Below are positions 2,842-20,454 of a DNA stretch of 32,000 bases, one piece after another. The stretch is from assembly GCA_963773305.1 (NCBI GenBank), contig CAVZAR010000002.1, positions 20,334 to 52,333 on the forward strand, in the 5' to 3' direction. Source of the stretch: an uncultured Pseudomonadota bacterium. Lineage in GTDB: Bacteria > Pseudomonadota > Alphaproteobacteria > Rhizobiales > Xanthobacteraceae. The position numbers and the translations under genes were made by a program. Under the pieces are notes generated by a model. That model did no database searches and was not told the DNA's origin. It was given only the letters and a program-made list of their open reading frames with translations. Position 1 is the stretch's first letter. Each line of letters opens with the position of its first letter.

Positions 2842-2852
2842 GGCACACCACC

Positions 2853-3881: not shown

Positions 3882-5227
3882 AAACGGTTCCGATGGTCGC
3901 CGGCGGCTTGCCTTATATCGGCCACGCGCTGGCCTTTAACCGGAATCCCGTAGAATTCTTGCAAAACGGCAAGGCGCTGCACGGCGACCTGTTTCGTTTC
4001 CGGCTGCTGGGGAACACCGTCTATGCACTGATGTCGAGTCGGGGCAACGAAGCGGTGTTTCGCGCCTCCGATGGCGTACTCGATTTCCGCGAAGCTTACC
4101 GCTTCACAATCCCGATTTTCGGCAAGGGTGTCGCCTATGATGTTGCGCCCGAGCTGATGGATCAGCAACTCGAGTTAATCCATCCCGGCCTGCGCGACGA
4201 GGCGATGCAGAATTATGCCGGGATCATGGCCGATGAAGTCGAGCGCTTCGCCACACGTCTTGGCGGCGGAGGCGAGATTGATCTCTTGACCGCGCTCAAT
4301 GAGCTCACGACCTTTATCGCCGGCCGTTGCCTCCTCGGCGAAGAGTTCAGAAGCCGTTTGTCGGCGGAATTCGCAGGGCTTTACCGCGATCTCGAGGGCG
4401 GCATCAATCTCGTCGCGTTTGTTGCGCCGTATTTCCCTACCGCCAAAAACCGACGCCGCGACCGGGCTCGGCGCGAGGTCGCCGCGATAATCGCCGATCT
4501 CATCGCAGGCCGTCGCCGCAGTGAAAAGGGGGAAGACGACTTCCTTTCCGTCCTGATGGCGGCGCGCTACGCCGACGGCACATCGTTGACGGACGATGCC
4601 ATCGCCGGCCTGCTGCTCACCCTGCTGTTTGCCGGCCAGCACACCAGCGCCGTCATGGCATCATGGTTGGGCGTGATGCTATCCAAGCATCGTGATCATG
4701 GAGCGGCCGTCGCCCGCGAAGCATCCGACATGCTCGGCAGTGAAGTTCGTCTGGCCAAGCTGAAGCGGATGCGGTTGATGGAATATTGCCTGAAAGAAGT
4801 GGAGCGGCTTTACCCGCCCCTCGTCATGCTGATGCGGAAGACGGTGCAGCCATTCTCGGTCGGCGACATCGTCATACCGCCGGGCAATCTGGTCATGGTA
4901 TCGCCCGGCGTGAGCCATCGCCAGCGCGAGGTCTTTCGAAATCCCGATGTTTTCGATCCAGCCCGTTTTGCGCCGCCGCGCGAAGAGGATCGCAAAACGC
5001 CTTATTCGCTGATCGGGTTCGGTGGAGGCAAGCATCGGTGCATCGGCATGGCGTTCGCCCATCAGCAGATCAAGGTCATCTGGGGCATTCTCCTGCAGCG
5101 TTTCGAATTCGAGCTGGTCGAGCCACAGGTCGAGCCCGACTATGCGACCTTTGTGGTGGGTCCGCGGCAGCCATGCCGCGTACGTTACCGCCGCCGGCAG
5201 TCCGAATCCTTGGCTGAGGCAAGCTGA
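3878..5227 (+). CDS. cyp51: Cytochrome P450 sterol 14-alpha-demethylase (CYP51)
   Basis: Heme-thiolate motif FGGGKHRCIGMAFA, CYP51-specific I-helix signature AGQHTS (LLFAGQHTSAV), and B'-helix signature YRFTIPIFGKGVAYDV. Confidence 0.9.
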   Translation: MKTVPMVAGGLPYIGHALAFNRNPVEFLQNGKALHGDLFRFRLLGNTVYALMSSRGNEAVFRASDGVLDFREAYRFTIPIFGKGVAYDVAPELMDQQLELIHPGLRDEAMQNYAGIMADEVERFATRLGGGGEIDLLTALNELTTFIAGRCLLGEEFRSRLSAEFAGLYRDLEGGINLVAFVAPYFPTAKNRRRDRARREVAAIIADLIAGRRRSEKGEDDFLSVLMAARYADGTSLTDDAIAGLLLTLLFAGQHTSAVMASWLGVMLSKHRDHGAAVAREASDMLGSEVRLAKLKRMRLMEYCLKEVERLYPPLVMLMRKTVQPFSVGDIVIPPGNLVMVSPGVSHRQREVFRNPDVFDPARFAPPREEDRKTPYSLIGFGGGKHRCIGMAFAHQQIKVIWGILLQRFEFELVEPQVEPDYATFVVGPRQPCRVRYRRRQSESLAEAS

Positions 5228-6840
5228 TGCGCACGCCCCGACCGATCGACTGGTTTCTCATTGGGCTCGTGGTGTTCTTCATTGCGTTCAACGCTACGGT
5301 TGATCGCTATTGGGTGACGCATGCGCACGAATTGCCGGCGCTGACCAAGACCGACCTTTTCGCGCGCATGTTCCAACATTATGCAGCCGCCGACCGAGGC
5401 TATTTCGACGAGGTCACCCAGGCCGAACTTGCGCTGGAAACGATCAACAGCACAATCACGCAAGCCTTCAACATCTGGCTGCTGATCGCGCTGTTCGCGC
5501 GCTGGCCGGTGCGCGTGCCGTTGCAGATCGCGATCGGCTCCTGGGTATCGTATTCGGTCTTGTTCAACTGGTGGTGCGCCCTGATCGCCGGTTTTCCCGG
5601 CATGGATCACAAGACGCCATGGAACTTCATCGTTTTGGTTGGAGCCAATCTGCCGTGGCTGGCTGGCCATCTCTACATCGCTTTCGCTGGCGCCCGCGAA
5701 TTCTTAAAGGTCGAGCCGCTCCCCGCCCCCGCCATGCGGAAGACCGCGCCGCTACCTCCCGATTTCTCCACGGCGCGCAATCTTCGCCAGAAAGCCCGCG
5801 CCGCGGGGCTTGACCCCGACCATTGGTACGCCTTCACGCGCGCCAAAGATCTCAAGCCGGGACAGGTGGTGGCTTCGAGCTTCCAAGGCGAAGCGATCGC
5901 GATCTATCGCGCTGCCGATGGCAAAGTTCGCGCCATGACCGACCGCTGCCTGCATCGCGGCATTCGGCTGTCGTTGGGCGAGGTGAGGGACTGCGGGCTC
6001 GTCTGCGCCTACCACGGTTGGGCCTATGGTGAAGATGGTAAGCTCGTCGATGTTGCGCACGAAAGGTTTGGCCGACCGCTGCCGGACGTCGGCGTCAGGG
6101 TATTCCCCGTGCGCGAGCGCTACGGCTTGATCTGGGTCTTTCCCGGCGATGCGGTGCGCGCCGAATCTGTGCCCATGCCCGAAATTCCGGAGATCGAGGG
6201 CCCGGATGCGTGGGCCTTCACGGCAATTGAATATACCTGGGATGCGCACCACTCGATCATCATCGATAACCTCAGTGATCTCACGCACGCCTATCTTCAC
6301 CGCCGCTACCGGCCGTTCCACGATCCCGTCCTGACGAAAAACGAGCCCAGCGATAACTCGGTGTACTGCATCTACGAATTGTCATTGCTAGACGGTCCGA
6401 TGAAGCGTCTGATCGACCGCGGCGCCAAGATGGACCTGATGGAGTTGTGCCTCGAGTACCCCTACCAGTGGGGCAATACCGGCGGTCGTGTAAAGCATTG
6501 GGTTTTTCTGACGCCGTTAAACGACCATCAAACGCGCGTCTACTTTATCTTCTATTTCAATCAGGTACAGGTGCCTTTCACGCCCTTTCATTTTCCGCAG
6601 CGGGTGATGGGCTGGGTGATCGGCATCTTCAACCCGATCTTCATCAAGCCGGTGACGAGTCAGGACGGCGATGCCGTCGCATGGGAACAGGAGGGCTACG
6701 ACACCGAGTTGGGCCGTCCCGTCATCGAACTCAATCCGGCGGTCGCCCAGTTCCAGCAGTTGATCGTGCGCAAGTGGCAGAACTATCTCGACCGCGTCTC
6801 CGGCGGGTCGGCTGCGAAGCATGAAAGCGCATTGACATGA
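5227..6840 (+). CDS. Fusion protein: N-terminal EBP/EXPERA-like 4-TM domain plus C-terminal Rieske [2Fe-2S] non-heme iron oxygenase (SdmA-like candidate sterol C-4 methyl oxidase)
   Basis: Rieske motif CLHRG...(17)...CAYHGW and a downstream DNLSDLTHAYLH metal-binding-like motif. The first ~165 aa are hydrophobic and paralogous to the next gene (shared ADRGYFDEV, RWP, YSV, NLPWL). The start overlaps the CYP51 stop (TGATG). Confidence 0.75.
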   Translation: MRTPRPIDWFLIGLVVFFIAFNATVDRYWVTHAHELPALTKTDLFARMFQHYAAADRGYFDEVTQAELALETINSTITQAFNIWLLIALFARWPVRVPLQIAIGSWVSYSVLFNWWCALIAGFPGMDHKTPWNFIVLVGANLPWLAGHLYIAFAGAREFLKVEPLPAPAMRKTAPLPPDFSTARNLRQKARAAGLDPDHWYAFTRAKDLKPGQVVASSFQGEAIAIYRAADGKVRAMTDRCLHRGIRLSLGEVRDCGLVCAYHGWAYGEDGKLVDVAHERFGRPLPDVGVRVFPVRERYGLIWVFPGDAVRAESVPMPEIPEIEGPDAWAFTAIEYTWDAHHSIIIDNLSDLTHAYLHRRYRPFHDPVLTKNEPSDNSVYCIYELSLLDGPMKRLIDRGAKMDLMELCLEYPYQWGNTGGRVKHWVFLTPLNDHQTRVYFIFYFNQVQVPFTPFHFPQRVMGWVIGIFNPIFIKPVTSQDGDAVAWEQEGYDTELGRPVIELNPAVAQFQQLIVRKWQNYLDRVSGGSAAKHESALT

Positions 6841-7334
6841 TGCGCACCGACAAAATAGCGCTCTCGTTAATCGCCTTCTTTGTCGTCGTGGCGCTGACGA
6901 TCGAACTGTATTGGCTTGTCCATGCCTTCGATTTGGCGAGCAGCAATAGTTGGCTCGCCCGCGGCTTCGCATTTTACGGCCGAGGCGACCGCGGCTACTT
7001 CGACGAGGTGAGCTGGTTCGAGGTCGGGCTCGAAAGCTTCAACATCATTTTCACGGTTCCGGTGTATCTCGTGTTGGGATATGCGATCGTCGCCGGGCGC
7101 GGGTTCCGCTGGCCCTTGCAGCTTTGTCTGGGTGCTTACACGACTTATTCCGTCGTGCTCTACCTGACGGCAAAGCATGTCACCGGCTATGTCGAGATGC
7201 CGAAACACGACCTCGCGTCGTTTCTAATTCTGTACGTTCCCAACCTTCCTTGGCTCTTTGGAAACGGGTATCTGACGCTCGATGCGGCAAGGGTCATCCT
7301 CCGCGCTGTGCGATTGCGCGAAAGGGGGGCGTGA
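6837..7334 (+). CDS. EBP-like (emopamil-binding-protein / sterol Delta8-Delta7 isomerase family) small membrane protein
   Basis: 165 aa with about 4 hydrophobic helices. YGRGDRGYFDEV resembles the EBP Y-x-K-G-D-S-R-Y segment. LESFN, RWPLQLCLGAYTTYSVVLYL and NLPWLFGNGYLTLDA align, from memory, to EBP METIT, ...LQLVVSVGQIYGDVLYF and NALWLVLPGVLVLDA. ATGA overlap with the upstream gene and TGATG overlap with the downstream gene. Confidence 0.65.
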   Translation: MMRTDKIALSLIAFFVVVALTIELYWLVHAFDLASSNSWLARGFAFYGRGDRGYFDEVSWFEVGLESFNIIFTVPVYLVLGYAIVAGRGFRWPLQLCLGAYTTYSVVLYLTAKHVTGYVEMPKHDLASFLILYVPNLPWLFGNGYLTLDAARVILRAVRLRERGA

Positions 7335-8401
7335 TGCAGTTCGCGCCGGTGACCTTGCAATCTGTCGGCCTTTCGGTACTCGGCATCGCGGGTTTTATTG
7401 TTGCCTTATTCGTATCGTCGCTCGTGGTGCCGGGTCCGGAATACGAGGTGACGGCCCGCGGCGGCGAGCGCATTCGCTACCGGCTCAATGGCTTGGCGCT
7501 GCTCGCAATAACGATCGCGATAGCGGCGCTCGCGCAATGGCGTGGACCCGGTCTGGCGCCGCTGGCGCGAGACATCTGGTCGCTTTTTATCGCGGCGAAC
7601 TTGTTGGCTTGGCCGGCGGCCTTCCTGCTGGTCGCCCGCGCGGGAGCGTGGCGGAAGAGCAGCGTCGCCGATTATTTCTACGGGGTCGAGAGGAACCCGC
7701 AGCTCTTCGGCATCGATTTGAAAATGTTCTCCTATCGTCCGTCGTTGATCGGGCTCGCGCTCGTCAACGCCTCTTTTGCGGCGTGGCAGTGGCAGGTCGC
7801 CGGGACGCTCAGCCTGGCGATGACCTGCTATCAGGTTTTCACGCTGCTCTATATCGTGAACTATTTCCAGTTCGAGAGCGGCATGCTTTTCACCTGGGAC
7901 ATCATCGAAGAAAAGTTCGGCTGGATGCTGGTTTGGGGCGACTATGTGCTGGTGCCCTTTTTCTACGCTTTGCCGGCCGCGTTCGTGCTTTCGCGGCCGG
8001 GTGATGTGACCTTCGCCGGAGCGGCGGCGCTCGCGGTGCTTTACCTGCTGGGTTTTTGGATTTTCCGCGGCGCCAATTCCCAGAAGCATCGCTTCAAGCG
8101 CCAGCCGGGCGCGCCGGTGTGGGGGCGTTCGCCCAGCGTCATCGGGGGCAAATTGCTCGCTTCGGGCTTTTGGGGCATCGGCCGCAAGCTCAACTACACC
8201 GGCGAATTCCTGATGTACCTGAGCTGGACGCTGCTGGCGGGCTTCCGGTCCGTTGTGCCGTATCTGCTGCTGCTGTGGCTGCTGCTGCTGCTTATGCAGC
8301 GCGCCAGCCGCGACGACCGCCGCTGCCGCGAAAAATATGGCCAGCTTTGGGATGAGTACTGCCGCAAGGCGCGGTTTCGAATGTTTCCGTACATCTATTG
8401 A
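7334..8401 (+). CDS. Sterol reductase, ERG4/ERG24 family (C-14 reductase most likely; DHCR7 or C-24(28) reductase not excluded)
   Basis: Family signatures LLASGFWGIGRKLNYTGEFLMYLSW and the C-terminal RDDRRCREKYGQLWDEYCRKARFRMFPYIY. The chosen start is the ATG at 7334 (MQFAPVTLQ...). The track's 6950 start would overlap the whole EBP-like gene. Confidence 0.85.
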   Translation: MQFAPVTLQSVGLSVLGIAGFIVALFVSSLVVPGPEYEVTARGGERIRYRLNGLALLAITIAIAALAQWRGPGLAPLARDIWSLFIAANLLAWPAAFLLVARAGAWRKSSVADYFYGVERNPQLFGIDLKMFSYRPSLIGLALVNASFAAWQWQVAGTLSLAMTCYQVFTLLYIVNYFQFESGMLFTWDIIEEKFGWMLVWGDYVLVPFFYALPAAFVLSRPGDVTFAGAAALAVLYLLGFWIFRGANSQKHRFKRQPGAPVWGRSPSVIGGKLLASGFWGIGRKLNYTGEFLMYLSWTLLAGFRSVVPYLLLLWLLLLLMQRASRDDRRCREKYGQLWDEYCRKARFRMFPYIY

Positions 8402-8404
8402 GGC

Positions 8405-9661
8405 GTGACGATGAACCGTGATCGAATTTACGACGTATGCATCGTCGGTGCCGGACCGGCCGGAGCCACGTGCGCCTTCTACCTCGCCAGCCATGGGCAC
8501 GATGTCGCGCTCCTGGAACGCAAGCGATTCCCGCGCGACAAGATTTGTGGCGACGCGATCTGTGCGCAGGCACAGCTGCATCTGAAACGCATGGGCGTCT
8601 TGCAGCAGATCATCGATAACGACGAGGGGCACTTTGCAGCTGTTGGCGGCATGGTCAGCCCGCGCGGCTACAGCTACATCGCCAGCTCTGCCGAACATCT
8701 TAAATCGAGCCAAGTTATCGCTATTAAACGTATGTTTCTTGACGTGCGTATCGCGTACGCAGCTAGGTCGGCCGGCGCAAATTTGGTAGAGGATGTCGCG
8801 GTTGCCGGGGCTGATTTCGACAAAACGAGCGGAACTTGGACCGTCACAACGGAAAATGGACAGCCGCCGATTCGCGCCCGCGTGCTTGTGGCAGCCGATG
8901 GCGCGCTCTCTCGTCTTGCGCGCCGCCTCGGCTATCTCGCATCGCCGCCGGATGCGGTATGCAGCCGCGCCTATGTGCGTGCCGACTCGACGAATTTCGA
9001 TGCCGACGGCGTGGTCTATTATCCAAAGCGCCTGCTCCCGGGATATTGCGCGATCTTTCGAGAAGCGCGCGGGGAGTTGAATTTCTGCGTCTATATTATC
9101 CCGGGCGGTAAGACCGGGATCGACGATCTGCGCACTGTACATCACGAGATCTTGCACAAGGATCCGCACGTCAGCCGTGCCATTGGCCCAAAAGCCGAAA
9201 TCGATCCGATGAAAGGTGCACCATTGCGGCTCGGCGGTATTGCGCGCAGCTACGGTGACCACTTTCTTATCGTCGGTGACGCCGCCGGACATATCGACCC
9301 GCTCACCGGCGAAGGTATTCAATTCGGTATGGACGCCGCGGAATATGCCGCCGACACGCTCCATGCTGCGCTGGCGGTCGGCGACCTCAGCGCAAGTGCT
9401 TTGAAAATCTACCAGGACCGCTGGATGAAAGCTTTCGGGCGTGACTTTTCCTGGTCATCGGCGATTGCGCGCTTTTATGCGCGGTTCCCCGGTTTTCTCG
9501 ACGCCGGTGCCTTGACCTTGCAGCGGCTGGGCCCACCTTTTCTGGCCGAATGGGCGCAGATCATGACCGGAGCTAGGCCAAAGACGGATTTCTTCAAGCC
9601 GGGAGTGTTCGCGCCGATCATGCGCGATTTTGTGTCCTTGCACTTGAGATCCGCGGCATGA
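8405..9661 (+). CDS. Geranylgeranyl-reductase-family FAD-dependent oxidoreductase
   Basis: YDVCIVGAGPAGATCAFYLASHGHDVALLERKRFPRDKICGDAI is the classic GGR-family N-terminus, and GDAAGHIDPLTGEGI is the second FAD motif. Start is GTG 8405 or ATG 8411. Confidence 0.7.
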   Translation: MTMNRDRIYDVCIVGAGPAGATCAFYLASHGHDVALLERKRFPRDKICGDAICAQAQLHLKRMGVLQQIIDNDEGHFAAVGGMVSPRGYSYIASSAEHLKSSQVIAIKRMFLDVRIAYAARSAGANLVEDVAVAGADFDKTSGTWTVTTENGQPPIRARVLVAADGALSRLARRLGYLASPPDAVCSRAYVRADSTNFDADGVVYYPKRLLPGYCAIFREARGELNFCVYIIPGGKTGIDDLRTVHHEILHKDPHVSRAIGPKAEIDPMKGAPLRLGGIARSYGDHFLIVGDAAGHIDPLTGEGIQFGMDAAEYAADTLHAALAVGDLSASALKIYQDRWMKAFGRDFSWSSAIARFYARFPGFLDAGALTLQRLGPPFLAEWAQIMTGARPKTDFFKPGVFAPIMRDFVSLHLRSAA

Positions 9662-10686
9662 ACGCGCAAGACAAACGCGGCAACCCGGGCATTGCGCAAT
9701 TGCTATCGTCGAATTCTGATCGCAACGGCGTCGAGGCGGCGGTTACCGACTATCTGGCGCATTACCACGGCACGCTCGCCGACCGCCAGTCGGCCTATGC
9801 GGACGTGGTGAACGGCTACTTCGACCTTGCGACCGACTTTTATGAGTATGGTTGGGGCCAATCGTTTCACTTCGCGCAAATAGCCGCGGGCGAATCGTTC
9901 GCGCAAGCAATCATCCGCCACGAGCGTCAGCTTTTTCATAGGCTCGGAGCGCAATCGAACATGACCGTGCTTGATGTCGGGTGCGGAGTAGGCGGCCCGA
10001 TGCGGAATCTCGCGCGCCTCGCGGGGTGCAAAGTTGTTGGCATCAACAACAATGCCTATCAGGTTTGGCGTGCAAAGCAGCTGAACGCCGAGGCCGGTAT
10101 TGACGAGCAATGTCGCGTCGTGCCCGGTGATTTCATGGCCATGCCGCTCTCGGACGGCACGATGGACGGAGCATACGCGATTGAGGCAACAGTGCACGCG
10201 CCGAACTGGGGTCGCGTGTTTCGCGAGGTCTGGCGGGTGCTCAGGCCCGGCGCCTCCTTTGCACTTTACGACTGGTGTCTGACCGATGTTTTCGATGTTG
10301 GAAATCCGCACCATCAGGAAATTAAGCGACGAATTGTTGCGGGCAACGGGTTGATCGACATAGGGACGTCTAGGCAATTGCTAGAGGCGCTGGGTGGGGC
10401 TGGATTCGATCTGCTTGAACATTATGACGCTGCTGCACGAGGCGGCGCGCCGTGGTTCGAGCCGCTGGCGCCGCGCAGCGTCTCGCTCGCGGGGTTCCGC
10501 AGCTCGGCCGTCGGTCGGAAAGTGACAAACTGGTCGCTGAAGGCGCTAGAGCTGTTGCGCATCGCGCCAAAGGGTACATTCAACGTGGCAGTCTTCCTCG
10601 ATAAAGCCGCGGTTGCGCTGGTAGAGGGAGGAAGGAGTGGGATTTTTACGCCGATGTATTTCGTGCATGCCCGTAAGCCCGGTTGA
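9658..10686 (+). CDS. Sterol 24-C-methyltransferase (SMT / ERG6 family)
   Basis: SMT region-I signature YEYGWGQSFHF, SAM motif VLDVGCGVGGPMRNL, and an SMT-type C-terminus GIFTPMYFVHARKP. ATGA overlap with the upstream gene. Confidence 0.9.
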   Translation: MNAQDKRGNPGIAQLLSSNSDRNGVEAAVTDYLAHYHGTLADRQSAYADVVNGYFDLATDFYEYGWGQSFHFAQIAAGESFAQAIIRHERQLFHRLGAQSNMTVLDVGCGVGGPMRNLARLAGCKVVGINNNAYQVWRAKQLNAEAGIDEQCRVVPGDFMAMPLSDGTMDGAYAIEATVHAPNWGRVFREVWRVLRPGASFALYDWCLTDVFDVGNPHHQEIKRRIVAGNGLIDIGTSRQLLEALGGAGFDLLEHYDAAARGGAPWFEPLAPRSVSLAGFRSSAVGRKVTNWSLKALELLRIAPKGTFNVAVFLDKAAVALVEGGRSGIFTPMYFVHARKPG

Positions 10687-10689
10687 GCC

Positions 10690-11937
10690 ATGCGGGTGGC
10701 GGTCGTTGGCGGAGGTGTTGCAGGTCTCACAACGGCATGGCTACTGGCGGAAACTTGCGATGTAACGCTTTTCGAACGCGGTCCGAGGCTGGGCGGCCAC
10801 GCCCACACTGTCGACATCATGGAAGATGGAAAGCAAATTGCGATCGATGTCGGCGCGGAATTTTTCGGCAATCGGCAGACTTATCCGCGATTTCATCGTC
10901 TGCTTGACCTTCTTTCGGTGCCGACCCGTTCCTTTTCGGCGACCGCGACGGTCTATTGTCCCGAGAACGGAGACAAATTGGTACTGCCGCCGTGGCGTGC
11001 CGGCGTGGTCGACTGGTCGGCGCTGAACCTTCGTGGGCTTTTGAATCTTTTGCGCTTCGCCGAATTTTCCGCAGCGGTCGGCTTCTCGAACGAAAACGCG
11101 CTTCGGCGAGAGACGATTAAGCAGTTTCTTGAACGGAAGTCGGCGCCAGATTTTAGAGACCGTTTACTGGTGCCGTTTCTGCTTGGACAGTTCGGAATGC
11201 CGCGCGACGCATTCAACGATTGTCTTGCCTACGACACGCTTAAATACTGCATGCAGGCTGGCGCCCTTCGACTAACTGCGCCGCGAATGACGGAAGTCGT
11301 GGGTGGGACGCGGAGTTATGTCGAGGCGCTGGAGGGCGAACTGCCGCGAGAGTGTGTGGTCCGGGACGCGTTGGTCACGCGCATTGAGTCGTCCCGTGAA
11401 GGACTCTTTCTCTGCCTTGACGACGGGGAACGGTATGCGGCGGATCACGTTGTGATAACCGCGGGCGCCAAGGACGCTGCTCGCTTATGCAAGACGAGTG
11501 GGCTCGCAAATGAAGCCCGCATTTTCGGCGGTGTCGATACGTTCGAAGCTGAATTGGTAGTTCACGGTGATGCTTCGGTCATGCCTGCCGAACCGAAAAG
11601 CTGGTCGGTCGCCAATTTTCGCGCGTCCGGCGATAGCGCAGCGTTGACGGTCTGGAAGCCTTGGAAAAGTAAGACCGTGTTCCGGAGTTGGACGACCGGA
11701 AAGGGGCATACTTACCGGAGCGAACACGGCAGATTCTGCTTTCGCCATCCAGTCGGCAATTCAAAATATTATTGGGTTCAGGATGCAATCCGCGTGCTGC
11801 AAGGCACAAAGAGTATCTGGTTTGCGGGAGCTTGCGTGCAAGACAATGACTGTCACGAAAGCGCTGTTATGTCGGCGCTCGCCGTGGCGCGCAGGCTTGC
11901 ACCGGGCAGCGGTCGAATTGTACAGCTCGGTCAGTAA
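10690..11937 (+). CDS. NAD(P)/FAD-dependent oxidoreductase (amine-oxidase/CrtI superfamily, COG2907-like), function unknown
   Basis: N-terminus MRVAVVGGGVAGLTTAWLLAETCDVTLFERGPRLGGHAHTV is a dinucleotide fold plus the GGH motif typical of this family. It is the last gene of the sterol operon and starts 3 nt after the SMT stop. Confidence 0.65.
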   Translation: MRVAVVGGGVAGLTTAWLLAETCDVTLFERGPRLGGHAHTVDIMEDGKQIAIDVGAEFFGNRQTYPRFHRLLDLLSVPTRSFSATATVYCPENGDKLVLPPWRAGVVDWSALNLRGLLNLLRFAEFSAAVGFSNENALRRETIKQFLERKSAPDFRDRLLVPFLLGQFGMPRDAFNDCLAYDTLKYCMQAGALRLTAPRMTEVVGGTRSYVEALEGELPRECVVRDALVTRIESSREGLFLCLDDGERYAADHVVITAGAKDAARLCKTSGLANEARIFGGVDTFEAELVVHGDASVMPAEPKSWSVANFRASGDSAALTVWKPWKSKTVFRSWTTGKGHTYRSEHGRFCFRHPVGNSKYYWVQDAIRVLQGTKSIWFAGACVQDNDCHESAVMSALAVARRLAPGSGRIVQLGQ

Positions 11938-11979
11938 TCTCGGCTTGCGAACCGCGGGTGTACAGCAATTGAAGGGCTA

Positions 11980-13296
11980 TTATGGTTGGTCCGCCGCGGG
12001 CGAGCCGCCGGTCTTTTGCATTGGCAGAGCGGTACCCGCCTCGCAGGATGCGAGTCGGACGCCGGCTAGATAATAATGGATGGCGGCCCAAAAAGAGATG
12101 CACTGCACGACCACAAGGCTATAACGCAATGCATCCGCGCCGTGGGACGCGAAGATAAACTGGCTTAGTGCGCCGGCCATGAGGGGGCCGAGACCAAGCC
12201 CGATAAGGTTGAGGACGAGCAGAAACACCGACGACGCTACCGGCCGCAATTCGGCGCGCATGTAATTGTGCAGCACCGCCAGCGACGGCCCTACATATAT
12301 CGCCGAGCAAATGCCGGGAATGAGAAACAGCAGGAGCGCGGACAGGGTAGGTTGCACGAGCAAAGCGCCGAAATACAGCGGACGTGTTGCGACCAGGACG
12401 GCCGCCACGAGCCAAAGTGACCAGCGGAGATCGCGGCGGCGGAGCCAGTCGCACGCCACGCCGCCGAACCAGGTGCCGAAGGCGCCGCCTATTCCAATGG
12501 TGAGCGCGAGGTAGGTGCCCGCGCTGGCAATTGTCATACCATGCGAGCGCACAAAAAATGACGGCAGCCAGGTGAGTGAAGCGTAACCGGAGATGCTGGC
12601 GAGGGTAGAGGCTATGGTGACGTGGCGCAAAATGGAGCTGCGCGTCATGATGCGCAGCGTATCCCCGAAGGGCCGCGGCGAGACATTTTCGTGCGCTTGC
12701 TGCGGAGGCATGCGGCGTGCAGGCTCGCGCACGGTGAGGCGTAATAGCGCCGCTATCGCTAGGGTCATGGCGCCGGCTGCCACGAAGGCAATGCGCCAGC
12801 CATAGACTTGGCCAATAATTCCACCAAACAGGAACGCCCCGAATACCCCGACATTGACGCCAGCCGCCCAGGTGGAAAGGGCCATCGCGCGGTCGTCCGG
12901 GCCATAAAGGTCGGAGATGATGGCGTGGGAGGCGGGCATTCCGCCGGCCTCGCCGATGCCCACGCCGAAGCGCGTGAGGAAGAGTTGCGAATAGGATACG
13001 GCAAAGCCACACGCCGTGGTCATTGCACCCCAGATCAGCGCCGAGACGGTCAGTAGGCCTGTGCGATTGCCGCGGACGGCATAGAGCGCCGCCGGAATGC
13101 TCAATGCTGTATAGATGAGAGCAAATGCAAGCCCCACGAGCGCGCCGATCTGGGTATCGCCAAGCGAGAATTCATGGCGGATAGGTTCGATCAGGATGTT
13201 CATGATCTGCCTGTCGAGCTGGTTCATCGCCGACAAGCAAGCCAGGACGAAAAGCACATAATGACGCGCGGCCGGCGAACGTGCTGGCGCGGTCAT
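11980..13296 (-). CDS. MFS transporter (Spinster-like subfamily pattern)
   Basis: 438 aa with about 12 hydrophobic segments. The N-terminal LACLSAMNQLDRQIMNILIEPIRHEFSLGDTQIGALVGLAFA pattern is typical of this MFS group. The start overlaps the LysR stop (ATGA). Confidence 0.8.
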   Translation of the reverse strand: MTAPARSPAARHYVLFVLACLSAMNQLDRQIMNILIEPIRHEFSLGDTQIGALVGLAFALIYTALSIPAALYAVRGNRTGLLTVSALIWGAMTTACGFAVSYSQLFLTRFGVGIGEAGGMPASHAIISDLYGPDDRAMALSTWAAGVNVGVFGAFLFGGIIGQVYGWRIAFVAAGAMTLAIAALLRLTVREPARRMPPQQAHENVSPRPFGDTLRIMTRSSILRHVTIASTLASISGYASLTWLPSFFVRSHGMTIASAGTYLALTIGIGGAFGTWFGGVACDWLRRRDLRWSLWLVAAVLVATRPLYFGALLVQPTLSALLLFLIPGICSAIYVGPSLAVLHNYMRAELRPVASSVFLLVLNLIGLGLGPLMAGALSQFIFASHGADALRYSLVVVQCISFWAAIHYYLAGVRLASCEAGTALPMQKTGGSPAADQP

Positions 13297-14273
13297 GAGG
13301 TCGCCGTCAATCCGTGTGATTTACCGGCCGCTTCAATGCCACCGGAGGGCACGCTGCCGGTCGCATCCCACATGGCCTTTAGCATAGTTTCACGCAGCCA
13401 TTTGTGGCCGGGATCGTCGGTGTTCTTTTCGTGCCACATCATATGGTATTCGTGAGGTGAAATCGGTACCGGCAACTCGTGAATGTCCAATTGAAAAGGT
13501 TCGGCCCAACGATGGGCGAAATGGCGGGGGAGGAACGAAACCAAGTCGGTCGTCGCGACGATCGCTGGGATCGACCAGATCTTGTGGACGCTGTACACGA
13601 GCCGACGTGGTCCACCGCGCGTCGTCATGTCGCGATCGATGGTAATCTGATTCCGAAGCTCGGGGATCAAACCGACGTGCCCGAGCTTAAGAAAGGTTTC
13701 CGCGTCGAGCTTCTTCCCGATCCCGGGATGTCCGCGGCGGCACACGACGACATAGTCGATCGCGCAAATCGGAATGATGACGATTCCGGAAAGACTTGCG
13801 ATAAACGGATAACACGCCAGGTCAAGCGTCCCCGACTTGAGGTCGTCGAGGATCGTGGTCAGCGCTGCGGGTCGCGATTCGATAGTAATGCCCGGTGCTT
13901 TTTGCTCGATGATCTGCAATGCAGGGGACAACATGTGCGATTCGAGCGTGTCGACAATCACGATACGAAAATCTCGCTTGTAGGTGGCGAGATCGAGCTT
14001 GGATGGGCCTTCGATCTGGCTGCGGATCAGTTTGAGCGCGTTGCGTACGGGCTCGATCATCTGCTGCGAACGGCTGGTAGGCTTGACCCCACGGCCGGAG
14101 CGCACAAACAGGAGGTCATCGAAGTGCTCGCGCAACCGCGAGATGGCATTCGAAACCGCCGGTTGCGTCAAAGATAGCTGCTTTGCGGCGTGACTGATGT
14201 TCCCAGTGGCGTAGACCGTATCAAATACAACCAAAAGGTTAAGATCAACATTTCTTACACTTTTGATTGTCAC
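13293..14273 (-). CDS. LysR-family transcriptional regulator
   Basis: HTH region VDLNLLVVFDTVYATGNISHAAKQLSLTQPAVSNAISRLREHF followed by a LysR substrate-binding-type C-terminus. The preferred start is GTG at 14273, preceded by GGAGGA. The track's TTG start at 14345 is an alternative. Confidence 0.85.
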   Translation of the reverse strand: MTIKSVRNVDLNLLVVFDTVYATGNISHAAKQLSLTQPAVSNAISRLREHFDDLLFVRSGRGVKPTSRSQQMIEPVRNALKLIRSQIEGPSKLDLATYKRDFRIVIVDTLESHMLSPALQIIEQKAPGITIESRPAALTTILDDLKSGTLDLACYPFIASLSGIVIIPICAIDYVVVCRRGHPGIGKKLDAETFLKLGHVGLIPELRNQITIDRDMTTRGGPRRLVYSVHKIWSIPAIVATTDLVSFLPRHFAHRWAEPFQLDIHELPVPISPHEYHMMWHEKNTDDPGHKWLRETMLKAMWDATGSVPSGGIEAAGKSHGLTATS

Positions 14274-14816: not shown

Positions 14817-15015
14817 GATCCTCTCCGTCGAAAAAGCGGCCGGCCTGGCGGTTGAATGCCTGACCCTAGCCGCGTAAGGCGGCGAGACATTGATCGAGCT
14901 CAAAGAATTACGGCAAAAAGCCGGGATTCCCAGGGGCCCAAGCACGAGCCCCGTCGCCTTCACATACCGCGGCTTTGGGTTAGGATGCGCGCCCGCCAAC
15001 CGAAAGAAGCGCCGC

Positions 15016-15438
15016 ATGCCAGCTCCGTTTCCGCTGCCCGCCAAGCTCAGTGCCGACCTCGCCGGCGTCAAGGCCTACTGGGAGGACCTCAAGCGTGCCG
15101 GCAACGAGATGCCGTTCTGGGACGACGTCAAGCCGTCGGCGCTCGGCGAGCGGGCCGACACCATCGTGCTGATCGACGTTTTCGATAGGCCGGAGCGCTT
15201 CCGTTTCAACGCGCTGGGCAAGGCGCTGGCGCGGCGCTATGGCGAGCCGCTCGCCAGCAAGTTCCTGGAGGAACTGACCTTGCGCGATCCGTTCGACTAT
15301 CTGCTGGCGCAGTGCAGCGCGACGGTCGAGGCGCGCGCGCCGACCTATTATGAGAGCGGCGGGGTTGCGCGCCTGCTGCTGCCGATGTGGGGCGACGGCC
15401 GCATCGGCATGCTGCTGGGCGCGGTGGAGTGGGCGTGA
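15016..15438 (+). CDS. Small PAS-like protein (PAS_5/DUF1457-type)
   Basis: The YWEDLKRAGNEMPFWDDVKPSALGERADTIVLIDV...RFRFNALGKAL pattern is typical of the alphaproteobacterial single PAS_5 proteins. ATG at 15016 chosen (MPAPFPLPAKL). Confidence 0.5.
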   Translation: MPAPFPLPAKLSADLAGVKAYWEDLKRAGNEMPFWDDVKPSALGERADTIVLIDVFDRPERFRFNALGKALARRYGEPLASKFLEELTLRDPFDYLLAQCSATVEARAPTYYESGGVARLLLPMWGDGRIGMLLGAVEWA

Positions 15439-15441
15439 GGC

Positions 15442-16344
15442 TTACGCCATCAATGCGCGCGCGCCCCTCGGCCAGGAGCCCGCTGACATCGATCCCGTTG
15501 GTTTCGTGCGCGATTGAGTTGGTGGTGACGACGCGGGCGGCGCCGGCTGCCCTCATTTCCGCAAGCGCGTTGCCGGCGAAGATGCCGTGCACGCCGATGC
15601 ACACCGGCGGAGCCAGACTTTTATCTTTCAGGTGTTTCAGCGTCTCGACCATGGTCTGCCCGCTGGAGATGATGTCGTCGACCAGTACCGGCGTGCGCCC
15701 GCACCACTGTGCAAGGTCGGGCATCGCCACCTCGACATCGCGGTCGCCGCGGCGGACTCTTGCGCAGCACGATGTGCGCCGCACCTGCGCCACGCGCCAC
15801 GGCTGCCACCCATTGCTCGCTTTCCCGGTCCGGCCCGATCAGCAGCGGGCTTGTCGACGTTGTCGCTGATCCATTGCGCGATCAGCGGCGCCGCATGCAG
15901 CGCGCGCGTCGGCACGCTGTAGATCTCGTCGAGCGAGGCGCGTCGGTGCAGATGCGGATCGACGGTGATCAGCCAATCGACTTCGCCCGACACGATGCGG
16001 GCGAAAGTGGCGGAGGAAATCGCCTCGCCCGGCTGGAAGCGGTGGTCCTGCCGCATATAGGCGAGATAAGGCGCAATGAGACCGACGCGGCGCGCCTGCA
16101 AGTCGCGCGCGGCCGCGGCGGCGAACAGCAGCGCCGGCAGCTTGTCGTCCGGCCGGTCGAGCGTGCACAGCAGCGCGACGTCGCGGCCGGCAACCGGCGT
16201 GTCATAGCGCCAATAGGTTTCGCCGTCGGGAAAGCGGCGCATCGTGGCCTTACCGGCTTCGGCGCGCAGCAGCGGCACGAGCAACGACGCCATTTGCTCA
16301 TTGCCGGGCAAGGCGAATAGCAAGGGCGTCATGGAAGCCGTCAT
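15442..16344 (-). pseudogene. Ribose-phosphate pyrophosphokinase (Prs)-like gene interrupted by 2 clear and 1 probable +1 frameshifts
   Basis: The coherent Prs-like sequence must be read across three frames. Frame 1 runs MTASMTPLLFALPGNE...AQWISDNVDKP. Frame 2 runs LLIGPDRESEQWVAAVARGAGAAHIVLRKS. Frame 3 runs RRGDRDVEVAMPDLAQWCGRTPVLVDDIISSGQTMVE...TNGIDVSGLLAE. Returning to the first frame then gives a stop TAA at 15442-15444. The switch points lie in G/C runs near 15847-15849, 15751-15756 and 15455-15467. Confidence 0.7.
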
Positions 16345-17885
16345 GGCGCGGTCACGATATAGATGTCGGGATTGGCCAGCGCGTATTCCAGCGCATAGTC
16401 CAGTTCGCCCGGCGTCTCGGCGTGGATGGTATAAAGCGGATGGCCCGGCTCGATCTCCTCGCCCAGCGTCACATGCAGTTCAACGCCCGCCGCCTTGTCG
16501 TCGGGCGCGCCGGCAAGCTTGGCGACGCGGGCAAGCCGCCGATTGTCGACCGCGGCGACGAGACCGGCGTGGCTGGCCTGGATGAGGTGACGGTGGTGCG
16601 AAACCGGCGGCGTGCGCAGGCCGCCTTGCGCTTCGCATATACGGCGGAATTTGGTGGCGGCCGCACCGCTGCTCAGCGTCTTCTCCGCGAGCGCAAGGCC
16701 TTCGCCCGCCGGCGACTTGTCGGCCAACTCCAGCAGCGTGCCGGCGAGCAGCACGGCGCGCTCGCGCAGGTCGTGCGGCGCGTCTGCCGCGTTGTCGAGC
16801 ACCGCCAGCACGTCGCGCGCCTCCAGCGCCGGGCCGATGCCGCGGCCGACCGGCTGGGTGCCGTCGGTAAAGACGGGCTTGGCGTGCAGGCCGAAGGCCT
16901 CCGCCACCTCGATCAGCCCTTGAGCGATCGAATGCGCGTCCTCGACGTTGCGCACCTTGGCGGTGGGCCCGACCGGCACGTCGAGCACGACATGGCTGGA
17001 TCCGGCGGCGATCTTCTTCGATAGCACCGAGGCGATCAGTTGCCCCTCGCTGTCGAGATCGAGCGCGCGCTCGACCGAGATCAATATGTCGTCGGCGGGG
17101 CTTAGGCGCACGGCGCCGCCCCAGGCGATGCAGCCGCCTTCGCGCTCGACCACCCGCCGCATGGTGGCAAGATCGAGATCGACCGGCGCCAGCGTCTCCA
17201 TGGTGTCGGCGGTGCCGGCCGGCGATGTAATGGCGCGCGAGGAGGTCTTCGGCATGGTCAGCCCGCAGGCCGTGACGATCGACACCACGATCGGCGTGGT
17301 GCGGTTGCCGGGCAGGCCGCCGACGCAGTGTTTGTCCACCACCGGATGCACGTCCCAGCTCAGCGTTTCGCCCACGTCCACCATGGCGCGGGTGAGCCCG
17401 ATCGCCTCGTTGCGGTCGAGCGGACGCGCCGCGCAGGCGGTGATGAACGATGAGAGTTGAATGCCGGAATAATGCCCGGAGGTGATGTCGGCGATGATGG
17501 TGGAGAGCGATTGCGCGTCCAGCCGGCGCCCGTACACCTTGCCGCGCACCATGCTGAGCGATTCGATCGGCGCCGGATGGCTTACCCGCACCTGGCCGCC
17601 GCCGTCGAGCTTAAGCCGTTTCCAGGCCGCTTCCGACAGGCCGGCCTCGTTGCGGTGCAGGATGTCGGAGCGGACGTGATAGAGCGTGGCAATGATCGAG
17701 TTGTGGCCGTTGGTCACGCGCACGCGCGCATGCGCGGCGAAACCTTCCGCGCGCACGATATGGCTGTCCTCGCGCAGGAAGATGACGGCGTCGTGCCGCG
17801 TGTCGATGCCAAGCCGGCGCGCGACCAGCGGGTTGCGCGGTTCGTCGGCGGTGTCGGTCGCGCTCGTGTCGTCGGTCGCTCTCAT
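16341..17885 (-). CDS. Thymidine-phosphorylase-family protein of the long (~510 aa) AMP-phosphorylase-like type
   Basis: DKHCVGGLPGNRTTPIVVSIVTACGLTMPKTSSRAITSPAGTADTME is the core motif of the putative thymidine phosphorylase / archaeal AMP phosphorylase group. The ATG at 17885 (MRATDD..) overlaps the upstream stop (ATGA), and the stop overlaps the prs-like start (ATGA). Confidence 0.85.
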   Translation of the reverse strand: MRATDDTSATDTADEPRNPLVARRLGIDTRHDAVIFLREDSHIVRAEGFAAHARVRVTNGHNSIIATLYHVRSDILHRNEAGLSEAAWKRLKLDGGGQVRVSHPAPIESLSMVRGKVYGRRLDAQSLSTIIADITSGHYSGIQLSSFITACAARPLDRNEAIGLTRAMVDVGETLSWDVHPVVDKHCVGGLPGNRTTPIVVSIVTACGLTMPKTSSRAITSPAGTADTMETLAPVDLDLATMRRVVEREGGCIAWGGAVRLSPADDILISVERALDLDSEGQLIASVLSKKIAAGSSHVVLDVPVGPTAKVRNVEDAHSIAQGLIEVAEAFGLHAKPVFTDGTQPVGRGIGPALEARDVLAVLDNAADAPHDLRERAVLLAGTLLELADKSPAGEGLALAEKTLSSGAAATKFRRICEAQGGLRTPPVSHHRHLIQASHAGLVAAVDNRRLARVAKLAGAPDDKAAGVELHVTLGEEIEPGHPLYTIHAETPGELDYALEYALANPDIYIVTAP

Positions 17886-19246
17886 GTCAGTTCCGCCGTG
17901 TCGCGATATTCCGGCACCGTGCAGGCCCAGCCGAGCTCTTCTTCGATGCGGTGGCGCAGCGCGTCGGCCGCCTCCGGCTCGCCATGGGTGATGAAGGTCT
18001 TCTTGGGGGCGGTACGGAAGTTGCGCAGCCAACCCATGATCTCGTCGGCGTCGGCATGGGCGGACAGCATGTGCAGATTGTCGACCTCGGCGCGCACGGG
18101 AACGTAGGACCCATGAATTTTGATCGCTTCGGCACCTTTTGTCATGGCGTCGCCGCGCGTGCCGCCGGCCTGGAAGCCGGCGAACAGGATGGTGTTGCGG
18201 GCATCCGGCGCATAGACCTTCAGATGATGCAGCACGCGGCCGCCGGTCGCCATGCCGCTCGCCGAAATGATGACCTTGGGCGTGCGATCGCTGTCGATCG
18301 CCTTGGACTCCTCGACGCTTGTTGTGAAGCGCGCCACCGCGCAGACAGCGCGCGCCTCGCTCTTGCTCAGCTTTTCCTCGTCGGCGTGCTTGACGAACAG
18401 TTCGCTCGCTTCGATCGCCATCGGACTGTCGAGGAAGATCGGGATTTCCGGAATGCGCTTTTGCTGCTTGAGCCGGCGCAGATGGTACATCAAGAGCTGC
18501 GAGCGGCCGACCGCGAAGGAGGGGATCACCACCGTGCCGCCACGCCCGGCGGTCCGGTTGATGATGTCGGCCAGCACCTCTTCCGGGTCCCGCGCCTCGT
18601 GCTTGCGGTTACCGTAGGTCGACTCGATCAGCAGATAGTCGGTCTGCCGGATTGGGGTGGGATCGATCACGATGGCGCTGTGGGGGCGGCCGAGATCGCC
18701 GGAGAACACCACCTTGGTGCCGCCGCAGGTGAGTTCGATCATTGCTGCGCCGAGAATGTGCCCGGCCGGCACGAAGCGGAAGCGGACCTGCGCCGACAAT
18801 TGCTTGTCCTCGTTGAAATCGAACGCGGCGAGGCGCTTGAGCGAGAATTCTGCGTCTTCCAGCGTGTAGAGCGGCAGCGCCGGATGGTGTTTGGAGAAGC
18901 CGTGGCGGTTGGCGAATTCGGCGTCCTTCTCCTGCAGGTGGCCGCTGTCCGGCAGCAGGATGGCGCACAGGTCGCGCGTGCCCGGCGTGCAGTAGATCGG
19001 CCCGCGAAAGCCGTTCTTCACGAGCAGCGGCAGATAGCCGGTATGATCGAGATGTGCATGCGTGAGGATGACGGCATCGACGCTTTTGGGATCGACCGGC
19101 AGCGGCGCCCAGTTGCGCAGGCGCAGCTGCTTGAAGCCCTGGAACAATCCGCAATCCACGAAGAAACGCTTGCCTTCCGCCTCCACCAGATATTTGGAGC
19201 CGGTGACCGTGCCGGCGGCGCCCAGGAAAGTAAGCTGTAAGCCCAT
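17882..19246 (-). CDS. MBL-fold metallo-hydrolase of the beta-CASP (RNA-metabolising) type
   Basis: MGLQLTFLGAAGTVTGSKYLVEA..., the HxHxDH motif (THAHLDHTGYLP), and beta-CASP-type C-terminal motifs (SAHAD). ATG at 19246 chosen. Confidence 0.85.
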   Translation of the reverse strand: MGLQLTFLGAAGTVTGSKYLVEAEGKRFFVDCGLFQGFKQLRLRNWAPLPVDPKSVDAVILTHAHLDHTGYLPLLVKNGFRGPIYCTPGTRDLCAILLPDSGHLQEKDAEFANRHGFSKHHPALPLYTLEDAEFSLKRLAAFDFNEDKQLSAQVRFRFVPAGHILGAAMIELTCGGTKVVFSGDLGRPHSAIVIDPTPIRQTDYLLIESTYGNRKHEARDPEEVLADIINRTAGRGGTVVIPSFAVGRSQLLMYHLRRLKQQKRIPEIPIFLDSPMAIEASELFVKHADEEKLSKSEARAVCAVARFTTSVEESKAIDSDRTPKVIISASGMATGGRVLHHLKVYAPDARNTILFAGFQAGGTRGDAMTKGAEAIKIHGSYVPVRAEVDNLHMLSAHADADEIMGWLRNFRTAPKKTFITHGEPEAADALRHRIEEELGWACTVPEYRDTAELT

Positions 19247-19348
19247 TGTGCCGCTCCGGCCGGTTGACGTTAACCGGCCGGCGCATAGGACCACCGTCGG
19301 GAACCGCGGCGTTTAACCTGGATCAAATTGCCGGGGAAACAAAGCAGC

Positions 19349-19930: not shown

Positions 19931-19971
19931 GATGACCTCGTTCGTGAGAATCTAAAAGTCAACGGCGGTAC

Positions 19972-20454
19972 TTATCGCCGGCTCTCCGAGCGGTCGAGCG
20001 GCGGCGCACGGCCGCCGTGCGTCCACGGCTGCGGCGGCGCGTGTTCGTCGATATAGGCGGCCACCAGAGCGCGCAACTGCGTCGGCATCGTCAAGCCGTC
20101 GACCATGATCGGCTTGCCGGCAGCGGCGTACGCGCGCACGGCCTCCGGCGCCGCCGTCAGCATATGCACGCGCGGCGGTGCGTGCTCCTGTGCCGCAAGT
20201 ACAACGATGACTTGCGGCACCGGCCGGCTGAGGTTCTCGCGATAGGCCGCGACCTCGTCCGGATAAAGCGTCAGCGTGCCGCCGCCGGCGAAGTAGTAGC
20301 CAGTCTCGCCCTCGCGCCACAGCGGGCTGCCGGGCGGCAGCCGCGCCGGGCCGATCGATACGCCCGACGCGCGCCAGAGACGGCTCGGCCCGTGACCGGC
20401 AACGCGACTGCGCTCGACGACGATCCCGAGCGGGATGGACAGACTGCTGTCCAT
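19972..20454 (-). CDS. Hypothetical protein, DUF3305-like
   Basis: The frame has plausible codon usage and lies immediately upstream of the cytochrome c gene on the same strand. The WREGETGYYFAGGGTLTLYPDEVAAYRENL pattern resembles DUF3305 from memory. The overlapping 19952..20557 ORF was rejected. Confidence 0.45.
   Translation of the reverse strand: MDSSLSIPLGIVVERSRVAGHGPSRLWRASGVSIGPARLPPGSPLWREGETGYYFAGGGTLTLYPDEVAAYRENLSRPVPQVIVVLAAQEHAPPRVHMLTAAPEAVRAYAAAGKPIMVDGLTMPTQLRALVAAYIDEHAPPQPWTHGGRAPPLDRSESRR

Follow-up and report, generated by a model that had tools for sequence, protein, structure and literature searches.

In a 32,000-nucleotide stretch of contig CAVZAR010000002.1 from an uncultured bacterium of the Xanthobacteraceae (hereafter the window), a ten-gene sterol operon ends in an uninterrupted open reading frame (ORF), here designated T (10690..11937, + strand, ATG to TAA), that encodes a 415-residue oxidoreductase with the fold of the flavin adenine dinucleotide (FAD)-dependent amine oxidases. 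Comparison of related operons indicated that T tracks the sterol Δ8→Δ7 isomerase and not the sterol C-24 methyltransferase (SMT) gene that it directly follows. T is very probably part of the sterol pathway. Its product is tentatively proposed to be a flavin-dependent C-5(6) desaturase of Δ7-sterols, an assignment that falls somewhat short of an even chance and takes its substrate and regiochemistry from gene neighbourhoods.

Conservation of T at the end of the sterol operon

The operon of the window has the order oxidosqualene cyclase (OSC)-squalene monooxygenase (SQMO)-SdmB-CYP51-(EXPERA-SdmA)-EBP-ERG24-geranylgeranyl-reductase-family protein (GGR)-SMT-T, and the nine genes upstream of T share its + orientation, adjacent genes overlapping or being separated by a few bases. 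An identical ten-gene order ending in T was found in two other loci, L001 (P0004; T 59% identical) and L084 (P0005; T 58% identical). The genes downstream of T were different in each case, i.e., hemerythrin, NnrS and nitrate reductase in L001, a histidine kinase/LytTR pair in L084 and major facilitator superfamily (MFS) and LysR genes in the window, and the MFS gene that follows T in the window was not conserved in L001 or L084. In a fourth, short contig (L087), the SMT C-terminus was directly upstream of T. The spacing between the SMT stop and the T start was 3 nt in all four contigs (TGA-GCC-ATG in the window and L001, TGA-GAT-ATG in L084 and TAA-ACC-ATG in L087). Because operon order and junction were kept while the downstream flanks differed, T is a conserved terminal cistron and not a passenger.

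In the window the junction occupies 10684..10692 (+), with TGA at 10684-10686, the spacer GCC and ATG at 10690, and the 3-nt spacing suggests translational coupling. The next gene, an MFS transporter (11980..13296, - strand; Pfam MFS_1, 3.1e-42), is convergent to T and closes the operon, which makes T the last cistron. The gap between the two genes is 42 nt, and a sequence scan of this gap revealed no consensus intrinsic terminator. The original prediction for this gene, which placed it 3 nt after the SMT stop and at the end of the operon before a convergent gene, was therefore accurate on both points, and the proximity to sterol genes on which it relied was found to be conserved in relatives of the close clade, the SMT-T junction being present in four contigs.

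Comparisons between the three full operons gave pN (nonsynonymous) values of 0.27-0.29 and pS (synonymous) values of 0.65-0.72 for T, ratios that are rough because dS is near saturation. T was the fastest-evolving gene of the operon yet clearly constrained, i.e., under purifying selection. Its homologues formed a tight group that scored at least 247 bits with at least 35% identity, as opposed to no more than 156 bits for generic "predicted NAD/FAD-binding proteins". The closest relatives of T (55-87% identity) were found only in metagenomes, and two proteins at 40-44% identity, P0299 and P0301, belong to an intermediate clade. A metagenome scan with the single T protein gave no match, and a rescan with an alignment of the close clade gave L087 as the sole match. 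The close clade is rare, amounting to 1-2 clusters at 50% identity among 1.84 billion representatives.

Association of T with sterol isomerase genes

The association of T with the isomerase was evident from sister operons that were found with SMT as a probe. Thus, L091 (SMT 61% identical) contained SdmA-OSC-SQMO-SdmB-GGR-SMT, L092 (SMT 56%) contained SdmA-OSC-SQMO-SdmB-CYP51-ERG24-GGR-SMT and the P0194 contig (SMT 55%) contained ERG24, SQMO, OSC, SdmA, CYP51 and SdmB followed by SMT, and neither EBP nor T was present within 10 kb in any of the three. SdmA was unfused (368-370 aa) in these sister operons; all three T-bearing operons (window, L001 and L084) had an EXPERA-SdmA fusion and a separate EBP. 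CYP51 and ERG24 also varied as a pair, L092 and the P0194 contig having both genes and L091 neither. Such pairing is expected of an enzyme that demethylates C-14 and one that then reduces Δ14, and it shows that these operons can be read as modular. T was judged to track the isomerase because EBP units and T likewise vary as a set and because of the contexts of more distant homologues in Chloroflexota.

A genome scan, limited to one genome per species, identified 78 T-homologue loci at 30-40% identity (ORF calling in the high-GC genomes was crude, and a filter on GC content at third codon positions was applied). The loci included approximately 40 from Microbacteriaceae, approximately 18 from Chloroflexota, others from Chlamydiae (Parachlamydiales, Waddliaceae) and Babeliales/Dependentiae, three from metagenome-assembled genomes (MAGs) of Gammaproteobacteria and single MAGs of Rokubacteria, Alphaproteobacteria, Myxococcales and Bacillota. 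No universal conserved neighbour of the T homologue was noted among the scanned loci. The Chloroflexota homologues, which were 35-40% identical to T, had a cytochrome P450 (P450) gene immediately upstream in L009, L010 and L065, a Rieske/KshA_C oxygenase gene immediately downstream in L004, L016, L020 and L088 or nearby in L032, L065 and L089, a gene for a CrtO-like flavoprotein of 518-531 aa in L004, L007, L032, L088 and L089 and several genes for 3β-HSD-type short-chain dehydrogenases/reductases (SDRs). Within 10 kb of the T homologue, EBP was present in L004, L088, L010 and L062 and ERG2_Sigma1R in L013, L032 and L089; SMT was never found near T homologues of this phylum. In eukaryotes, sterol Δ8→Δ7 isomerisation is carried out by EBP as well as by ERG2, although the two families are unrelated. 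That one or the other is found in clusters of otherwise similar content points to a sterol-isomerase activity as the common requirement.

The sister operons and the Chloroflexota loci also bear on the main rival explanation, namely that T is a side-chain desaturase that acts beside the methyl branch introduced by SMT and creates either Δ22 in conjugation with Δ24(28) or Δ23 in conjugation with Δ25(27). T and SMT would then be the sterol counterpart of the UfaM → UfaD pair and of ERG5/CYP710. This explanation is kept alive by analogy and by position, i.e., by the 3-nt separation of SMT and T in four contigs, by the lack of a CYP710/CYP61-type P450 in the operon and by UfaD, an FAD-type desaturase that converts the methyl-branched allylic product of UfaM, a CMAS-like S-adenosylmethionine-dependent methylase, to a conjugated diene (PMC7380195) and whose type is the nearest outgroup of T. 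Against it, L091, L092 and the P0194 contig have SMT but no T within 10 kb, no T homologue outside the close clade adjoins SMT, the Chloroflexota and Rokubacteria contexts are without SMT, and the end of an operon is also the expected insertion point for a late addition. ERG5/CYP710 enzymes, which are P450 C-22 desaturases that act after C-24 methylation in fungi and plants, have no homology to T, and comparative operon content does not link T to SMT. A side-chain role is thus considered unlikely, and C-5(6) desaturation is preferred.

The Chloroflexota loci suggest another explanation, in which T would oxidise 3β-hydroxysteroids or assist C-4 demethylation, acting with SdmA and SdmB on 3-hydroxy or 3-keto intermediates, since the T homologues of this phylum sit with Rieske oxygenases and 3β-HSD-type SDRs, the classes to which SdmA and SdmB belong. 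However, SdmA and SdmB are enough for C-4 demethylation in tested bacteria, both are present without T in L091, L092 and the P0194 contig, and known cholesterol oxidases are of other flavoprotein families. This explanation was accordingly ranked as the least probable of those considered.

The Chloroflexota clusters themselves (L089 1426..15155, L032 6391..12832, L088 8166..16550, L004 10001..18242 and also L013) contain, in addition, up to three 3β-HSD SDRs, F420H2_quin_red-family and Polyketide_cyc2 (START-like) proteins and sometimes a flavin-containing monooxygenase or P450. The CrtO-like flavoprotein scored 311 bits with the NCBIfam CrtO model, which is below cutoff. The cluster looks like a sterol- or steroid-tailoring set with no OSC nearby, and no description of it was found in the literature.

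Outside Chloroflexota, sterol genes were noted in the Rokubacteria MAG (L038), in which the T homologue was 5-10 kb from SdmA, OSC and SQMO. In Microbacteriaceae, the T homologue was flanked by variable, oppositely oriented genes and looked monocistronic. No sterol-type genes were seen near the T homologue in Chlamydiae, Babeliales or the Gammaproteobacteria MAGs, and an unbiased extra look-up of the P0131 context, which was also without sterol genes, tempers the generality of the sterol link. Microbacteriaceae, Chlamydiae, Babeliales and the Gammaproteobacteria concerned are not known to produce sterols. No T homologue from known sterol producers (Calothrix, Myxococcota isolates, methanotrophs) was present among protein-search matches.

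A further explanation is that T has no sterol substrate and is a co-transcribed isoprenoid, fatty-acyl or amine oxidase or an HpnE-like supplier of squalene. Most members of the wider clade are in organisms or contexts without sterol genes, and the name of the family, "predicted NAD/FAD-binding protein", is noncommittal. On the other hand, the last-cistron place and 3-nt junction of T are kept across 55-60% identity and three different flanks, and rare sterol-type genes (EBP, ERG2 and OSC) occur near T homologues in three lineages. An HpnE-like role is further opposed by a score of 58.9 bits against a cutoff of 283 and by the lack of hpnC/hpnD-type genes nearby, and a role in squalene supply by the T-less sister operons, which still hold SQMO and OSC. 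A non-sterol T therefore appears very improbable, ranking just ahead of the 3β-oxidase proposal.

Two further observations concern the wider homologues. In a neighbour-joining (NJ) tree, those of Babeliales/Dependentiae (L014, L028, L048, L063 and L068), Chlamydiae (L018, L027, L031, L043, L061 and L080) and the Gammaproteobacteria MAGs (L006, L042 and L049) grouped together. Babeliales/Dependentiae and Chlamydiae are obligate intracellular or amoeba-associated lineages, and the grouping would fit gene exchange between these bacteria; modification of host sterols by the T homologues of amoeba-associated lineages is conceivable but purely speculative. In L038, the T homologue adjoins a gene (4771..8058, - strand) for a 1095-aa HAE3-like resistance-nodulation-division (RND) transporter with weak similarity to HpnN and BstA, the C-terminal stretch of which matches cyclic-nucleotide-binding-type families (NCBIfam). 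This gene and another (8089..9816, + strand) for a 575-aa protein without a family match both lie between OSC/SQMO/SdmA and the T homologue, and together may represent a sterol export module.

Fold and family placement of the T protein

The N-terminus of T, MRVAVVGGGVAGLTTAWLLA...FERGPRLGGHAHTV, is a Rossmann dinucleotide-binding motif (GxGxxG/E/RLGGH signature) with GGGVAG at residues 7-12 and an acidic residue, E29, at the end of β2. Scores in a Pfam profile search were above cutoff for Amino_oxidase (PF01593; 1.3e-20, 74.6 bits, cutoff 19.8) as well as NAD_binding_8 (PF13450; 5.6e-15, 55.8 bits, cutoff 21.9). An AlphaFold2 model of T based on 36 homologues had a mean predicted local distance difference test (pLDDT) score of 91.2 and a predicted template-modelling (pTM) score of 0.91. 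Comparison of this model with the PDB by Foldseek gave 958 matches at E<=0.001, the top one being LkcE (TM 0.81), and the top 50 included LkcE, protoporphyrinogen oxidase, monoamine oxidase, nicotine oxidases and related flavin amine-oxidase-family enzymes. Judged by its N-terminal motif, hidden Markov model score and modelled two-domain fold, T belongs to the flavin amine-oxidase superfamily and is predicted to bind FAD. The dinucleotide-binding N-terminus noted in the original prediction was thus borne out, and the label "COG2907-like" that it had applied to T fits both the JGI name of the homologues ("predicted NAD/FAD-binding protein") and the operon of the nearest outgroup, which consists of ECF-sigma/ChrR-like, COG2907, DUF1365 and CMAS genes.

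LkcE (PDB 6F32), a lankacidin amide oxidase/macrocyclase, was also the best PDB sequence match of T (phmmer 6e-20; profile 7e-47, full length). The two proteins were approximately 22% identical in a structural alignment. E64 and Y182 of LkcE correspond to E57 and Y181 of T, with either E or Q at position 57 in the T clade. Strict conservation of E64, Y182 and R326 has been reported for LkcE-type cyclases (PMC6162330), and R326 is in an insertion that is absent from T. Because the R326 equivalent is missing and there is no polyketide context, i.e., no adjacent polyketide synthase genes, identification of T as an LkcE-type amide oxidase/cyclase was rejected.

Among the nearest outgroup proteins, P0041 was 31% identical to T (97% coverage, E 1.9e-36). 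Its locus (L090) contains genes for an extracytoplasmic function (ECF) sigma factor, ChrR-like Cupin_7, COG2907, DUF1365 and CMAS, an arrangement that we take to be one of furan-fatty-acid genes, as in the Rhodobacter sphaeroides rpoE-chrR/RSP1091-1087 locus; the label "UfaD-type" for this outgroup is based on synteny. UfaD (RSP1091/RPA2571) is of the same superfamily branch as T, and its allylic lipid desaturation is the chemistry proposed for T. The T clade and the UfaD-like group have in common the FAD-site motifs, GGH at 35-37, H292-x-D294, W305, N309, H353 and E390, and are separated by F58, Y186, W334, D387, S391, R311 and K/R332. T proteins (415-430 aa) are also about 40 residues shorter than UfaD-like proteins (approximately 460 aa). 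The T clade was monophyletic with respect to UfaD-like outgroups in the NJ tree, with the sub-clade of the window as the first branch, and neither DUF1365 nor a CMAS-type UfaO gene adjoined T in any T-clade locus. T is thus a COG2907/UfaD-type homologue over its full length but, being in a separate clade with other partners, not an orthologue.

None of the NCBIfam equivalogs reached cutoff for T. Scores of 58.9 bits with TIGR03467 (cutoff 283.05), 23.6 bits with TIGR02734, i.e., crtI_fam (cutoff 238.1), and 57.7 bits with TIGR00562 (cutoff 97.85) led to rejection of T as HpnE, as a CrtI-family desaturase and as protoporphyrinogen oxidase, respectively; in the case of HpnE, moreover, no SQS_PSY (hpnC/hpnD-type) gene was called in L001 or L084. 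CrtI/CrtN/CrtD and HpnE resemble T in superfamily and FAD dependence, act on isoprenoid substrates and extend conjugation by desaturation, but T is far below the cutoffs of these families, and neither carotenoid genes nor hpnCD are among its neighbours. Within the flavin amine oxidases, T is most aptly placed in the COG2907 branch, to which UfaD and LkcE belong, as a novel form associated with a sterol operon.

Proposed reaction of T

A double-bond-forming role for T is reasonable because its closest characterised relatives are oxidative flavoenzymes, UfaD desaturating a lipid and LkcE transferring hydride to FAD. T is moderately likely to be a desaturase rather than a reductase or isomerase. 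A reductive or isomerising enzyme like RetSat, CrtISO or HpnE might convert Δ24(28) to Δ24(25) for Bsr-type saturation or reduce Δ7/Δ8 to give a stanol nucleus. The flavin amine-oxidase superfamily does include saturases and isomerases, HpnE was the top NCBIfam model for T (far below cutoff, as noted), genes of the F420H2-dependent reductase family are present in Chloroflexota clusters, and the Bsr-like reductase and SMT would compete for substrate unless a double bond were moved. Opposed to this are the oxidative nature of both UfaD and LkcE and the presence in L091 and L092 of Bsr and SMT without T, so that no helper isomerase is needed there. An isomerase would also leave the co-occurrence with EBP/ERG2 unexplained, and such activities were rated as less probable again than side-chain desaturation.

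The proposed C-5(6) desaturation would follow the action of the EBP-type Δ8→Δ7 isomerase. T would dehydrogenate a Δ7-sterol across C-5 and C-6, which would leave a conjugated Δ5,7-diene. Hydride would pass from the allylic C-6 to flavin N5 with subsequent loss of the C-5 proton, and O2 or a quinone would accept the electrons of the reduced flavin. In type, the transformation would resemble those of UfaD and CrtI-type enzymes. The end product of the operon would then be a C-4-demethylated, C-24-alkylated Δ5,7 sterol, or a Δ7 sterol if T does otherwise. Once Δ7 has been formed, the canonical pathway proceeds to C-5 desaturation, and in Δ7-sterols the C-6 position is allylic. The C-5 step is favoured because T tracks the isomerase and because the operon is without another C-5 candidate. 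Thus, at the Pfam level, no ERG3-type (FA_hydroxylase) gene was present in the operon of the window, in which CYP51 was the sole P450, and the genes called up to 10 kb from T in L001 and L084 likewise included neither an ERG3-type gene nor a second P450. The earlier claim that the operon contains no ERG3- or CYP710-type gene holds at this level for the part within the window, a limit set by the 5' end of the operon, which lies outside the window. As for the broader proposal that T introduces or moves a sterol double bond, oxidative relatives and operon conservation make it plausible, whereas the emphasis placed on SMT adjacency was not supported. Between the two examples given with that proposal, C-5 desaturation is favoured, albeit tentatively, and C-22 desaturation is disfavoured as unlikely, since SMT operons without EBP lack T.

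Several observations weigh against C-5(6) desaturation and the associations on which it is based. The three T-bearing operons are of one clade, so that "EBP + T" may be a single gain event, T directly follows SMT and not EBP, and EBP or T might be located elsewhere in the T-less genomes. In Rokubacteria, sterol genes are present at the locus, yet EBP is absent within 10 kb. Approximately two-thirds of wider-clade loci are without sterol-type neighbours, metagenomic members of the clade (L003, the P0023 contig and L093) are in unrelated contexts, and the ancestral substrate of the T family may not have been a sterol. The operon contains a single ERG4/ERG24-family reductase, and formation of a Δ5 end product would call for an additional enzyme. 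Finally, since Calothrix and cultured Myxococcota were not represented among the matches, T is not a general answer to the missing bacterial C-5 desaturase. Homologues for C-5 desaturation are lacking from at least one cholesterol-producing bacterium, and for Calothrix the introduction and removal of ring-B double bonds without ERG3 and DHCR7 homologues has been posed as a question (bioRxiv 10.1101/2022.10.03.510737, version of PMC10202945).

The known enzyme for this step, ERG3/SC5D, also acts on Δ7-sterols after EBP or ERG2, and T would be its functional equivalent. The two have no homology, ERG3/SC5D being a membrane di-iron enzyme that depends on O2 and cytochrome b5 and T a predicted soluble or peripheral FAD enzyme. 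It is possible, though in our view doubtful, that T is the first member of a new family of sterol C-5(6) desaturases that use flavin and replace di-iron ERG3/SC5D without being homologous to it. The literature searched contained nothing on a bacterial flavin sterol desaturase or on a link between COG2907 and sterols, and neither it nor the profile libraries assign a function to T. A precedent is provided by Bsr, a bacterial C-24 sterol reductase of the GGR family that is unrelated to the eukaryotic enzyme (PMC12004948), i.e., a flavoprotein found through sterol-cluster context that replaces a non-homologous eukaryotic enzyme, and a Bsr-like gene is located two genes upstream of T. Bsr differs from T in family (GGR, FAD_binding_3), in being reductive and in having been characterised experimentally.

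Bacterial sterol pathways have repeatedly swapped eukaryotic steps for unrelated enzymes, as in the case of SdmA/SdmB at C-4 and Bsr at C-24. T is a concrete candidate for the introduction of a ring-B double bond in bacterial sterol synthesis, and the T-less sister operons are natural controls for this candidate. If the proposal is correct, a core step of sterol synthesis would have a second, enzymatically different solution, possibly with quinone rather than O2 as electron acceptor, and some uncultured bacteria would make Δ5,7 (provitamin-D-type) 24-alkyl sterols de novo. The absence of ERG3 from metagenomes would no longer imply the absence of Δ5 or Δ5,7 sterols, which would change the scoring of pathway completeness. 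There would also be implications for how much oxygen sterol synthesis demands and for the assignment of sterane biomarker sources. Relatives of T in Chloroflexota, amoeba-associated Chlamydiae, Babeliales and Gammaproteobacteria would then remodel sterols that are made or imported.

Other genes of the operon and the window

The genes upstream of T, all on the + strand, were assigned as follows. The window begins within the OSC gene, the C-terminal part of which (1..1520; Pfam SQHop_cyclase_C, 6.3e-55) is cut at base 1; full-length OSC orthologues in L001 and L084 are 666 aa. The SQMO gene (1507..2841; Pfam SE, 5.9e-21, and FAD_binding_3) was given the start 1507 from the 444-aa orthologue of L001, which overlaps the OSC gene by 14 nt. 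It is followed by an SdmB-type SDR of C-4 demethylation (2853..3881; NCBIfam SdmB, 287 bits, below the cutoff of 600; Pfam Epimerase and 3Beta_HSD) and a CYP51-type sterol 14α-demethylase (3878..5227; Pfam p450, 8.7e-61), the 90% cluster representative of which carries the JGI name sterol 14alpha-demethylase.

The next gene (5227..6840; Pfam EBP, Rieske and VanA_C) encodes a 537-aa fusion of an EXPERA (EBP-like) domain at residues 44-152 with a Rieske sterol C-4 methyl oxidase of the SdmA type (308 bits with NCBIfam SdmA across residues 186-522, short of the equivalog cutoff of 600). The fusion is kept in L001 (546 aa) and L084 (539 aa), and we know of no prior description of a fused isomerase-like and demethylase protein. 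The stand-alone EBP/EXPERA gene (6837..7334; Pfam EBP, 8.7e-08, 32.9 bits, cutoff 25.7) overlaps the fusion gene by 4 nt and encodes a 165-aa protein that is a probable sterol Δ8→Δ7 isomerase. The ERG4/ERG24-family sterol reductase (7334..8401; Pfam ERG4_ERG24, 3.4e-69), with a start taken from the 354-aa orthologue of L001, is probably the C-14 reductase that partners CYP51.

The GGR-family flavoprotein (8405..9661; NCBIfam TIGR02032 GG-red-SF, 171.5 bits, cutoff 158.8) is a probable Bsr-type sterol C-24 reductase. It precedes SMT (9658..10686; Pfam Sterol_MT_C, 6.8e-24, plus methyltransferase domains), the homologues of which carry the JGI name sterol 24-C-methyltransferase. The two genes overlapped by 4 nt in five operons (window, L091, L092, L001 and L084). 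Both enzymes require the Δ24 bond, and the side chain that they produce between them may be 24-methyl saturated.

Differences in base composition were also noted. The GC content of the sterol operon and its flank (window 1..14000) was 0.57-0.645 as compared with 0.63-0.70 downstream (15000..24000), and the lower values may reflect horizontal acquisition of the operon. Integrase and transposase fragments located directly after the T-less operon of L092 (11806..12811) suggest mobility of these sterol operons. Further downstream in the window, a region of low GC content (25001..27000; approximately 0.49-0.50 versus 0.62-0.70 around it), with ORFs at 25073..25744 and 25754..26761 that gave no Pfam match, may be a recently acquired island. 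On the - strand of the window is a 742-aa ORF (27145..29373), otherwise unannotated, for which the sole Pfam match was a short RoxA-like cytochrome c motif (28.7 bits).

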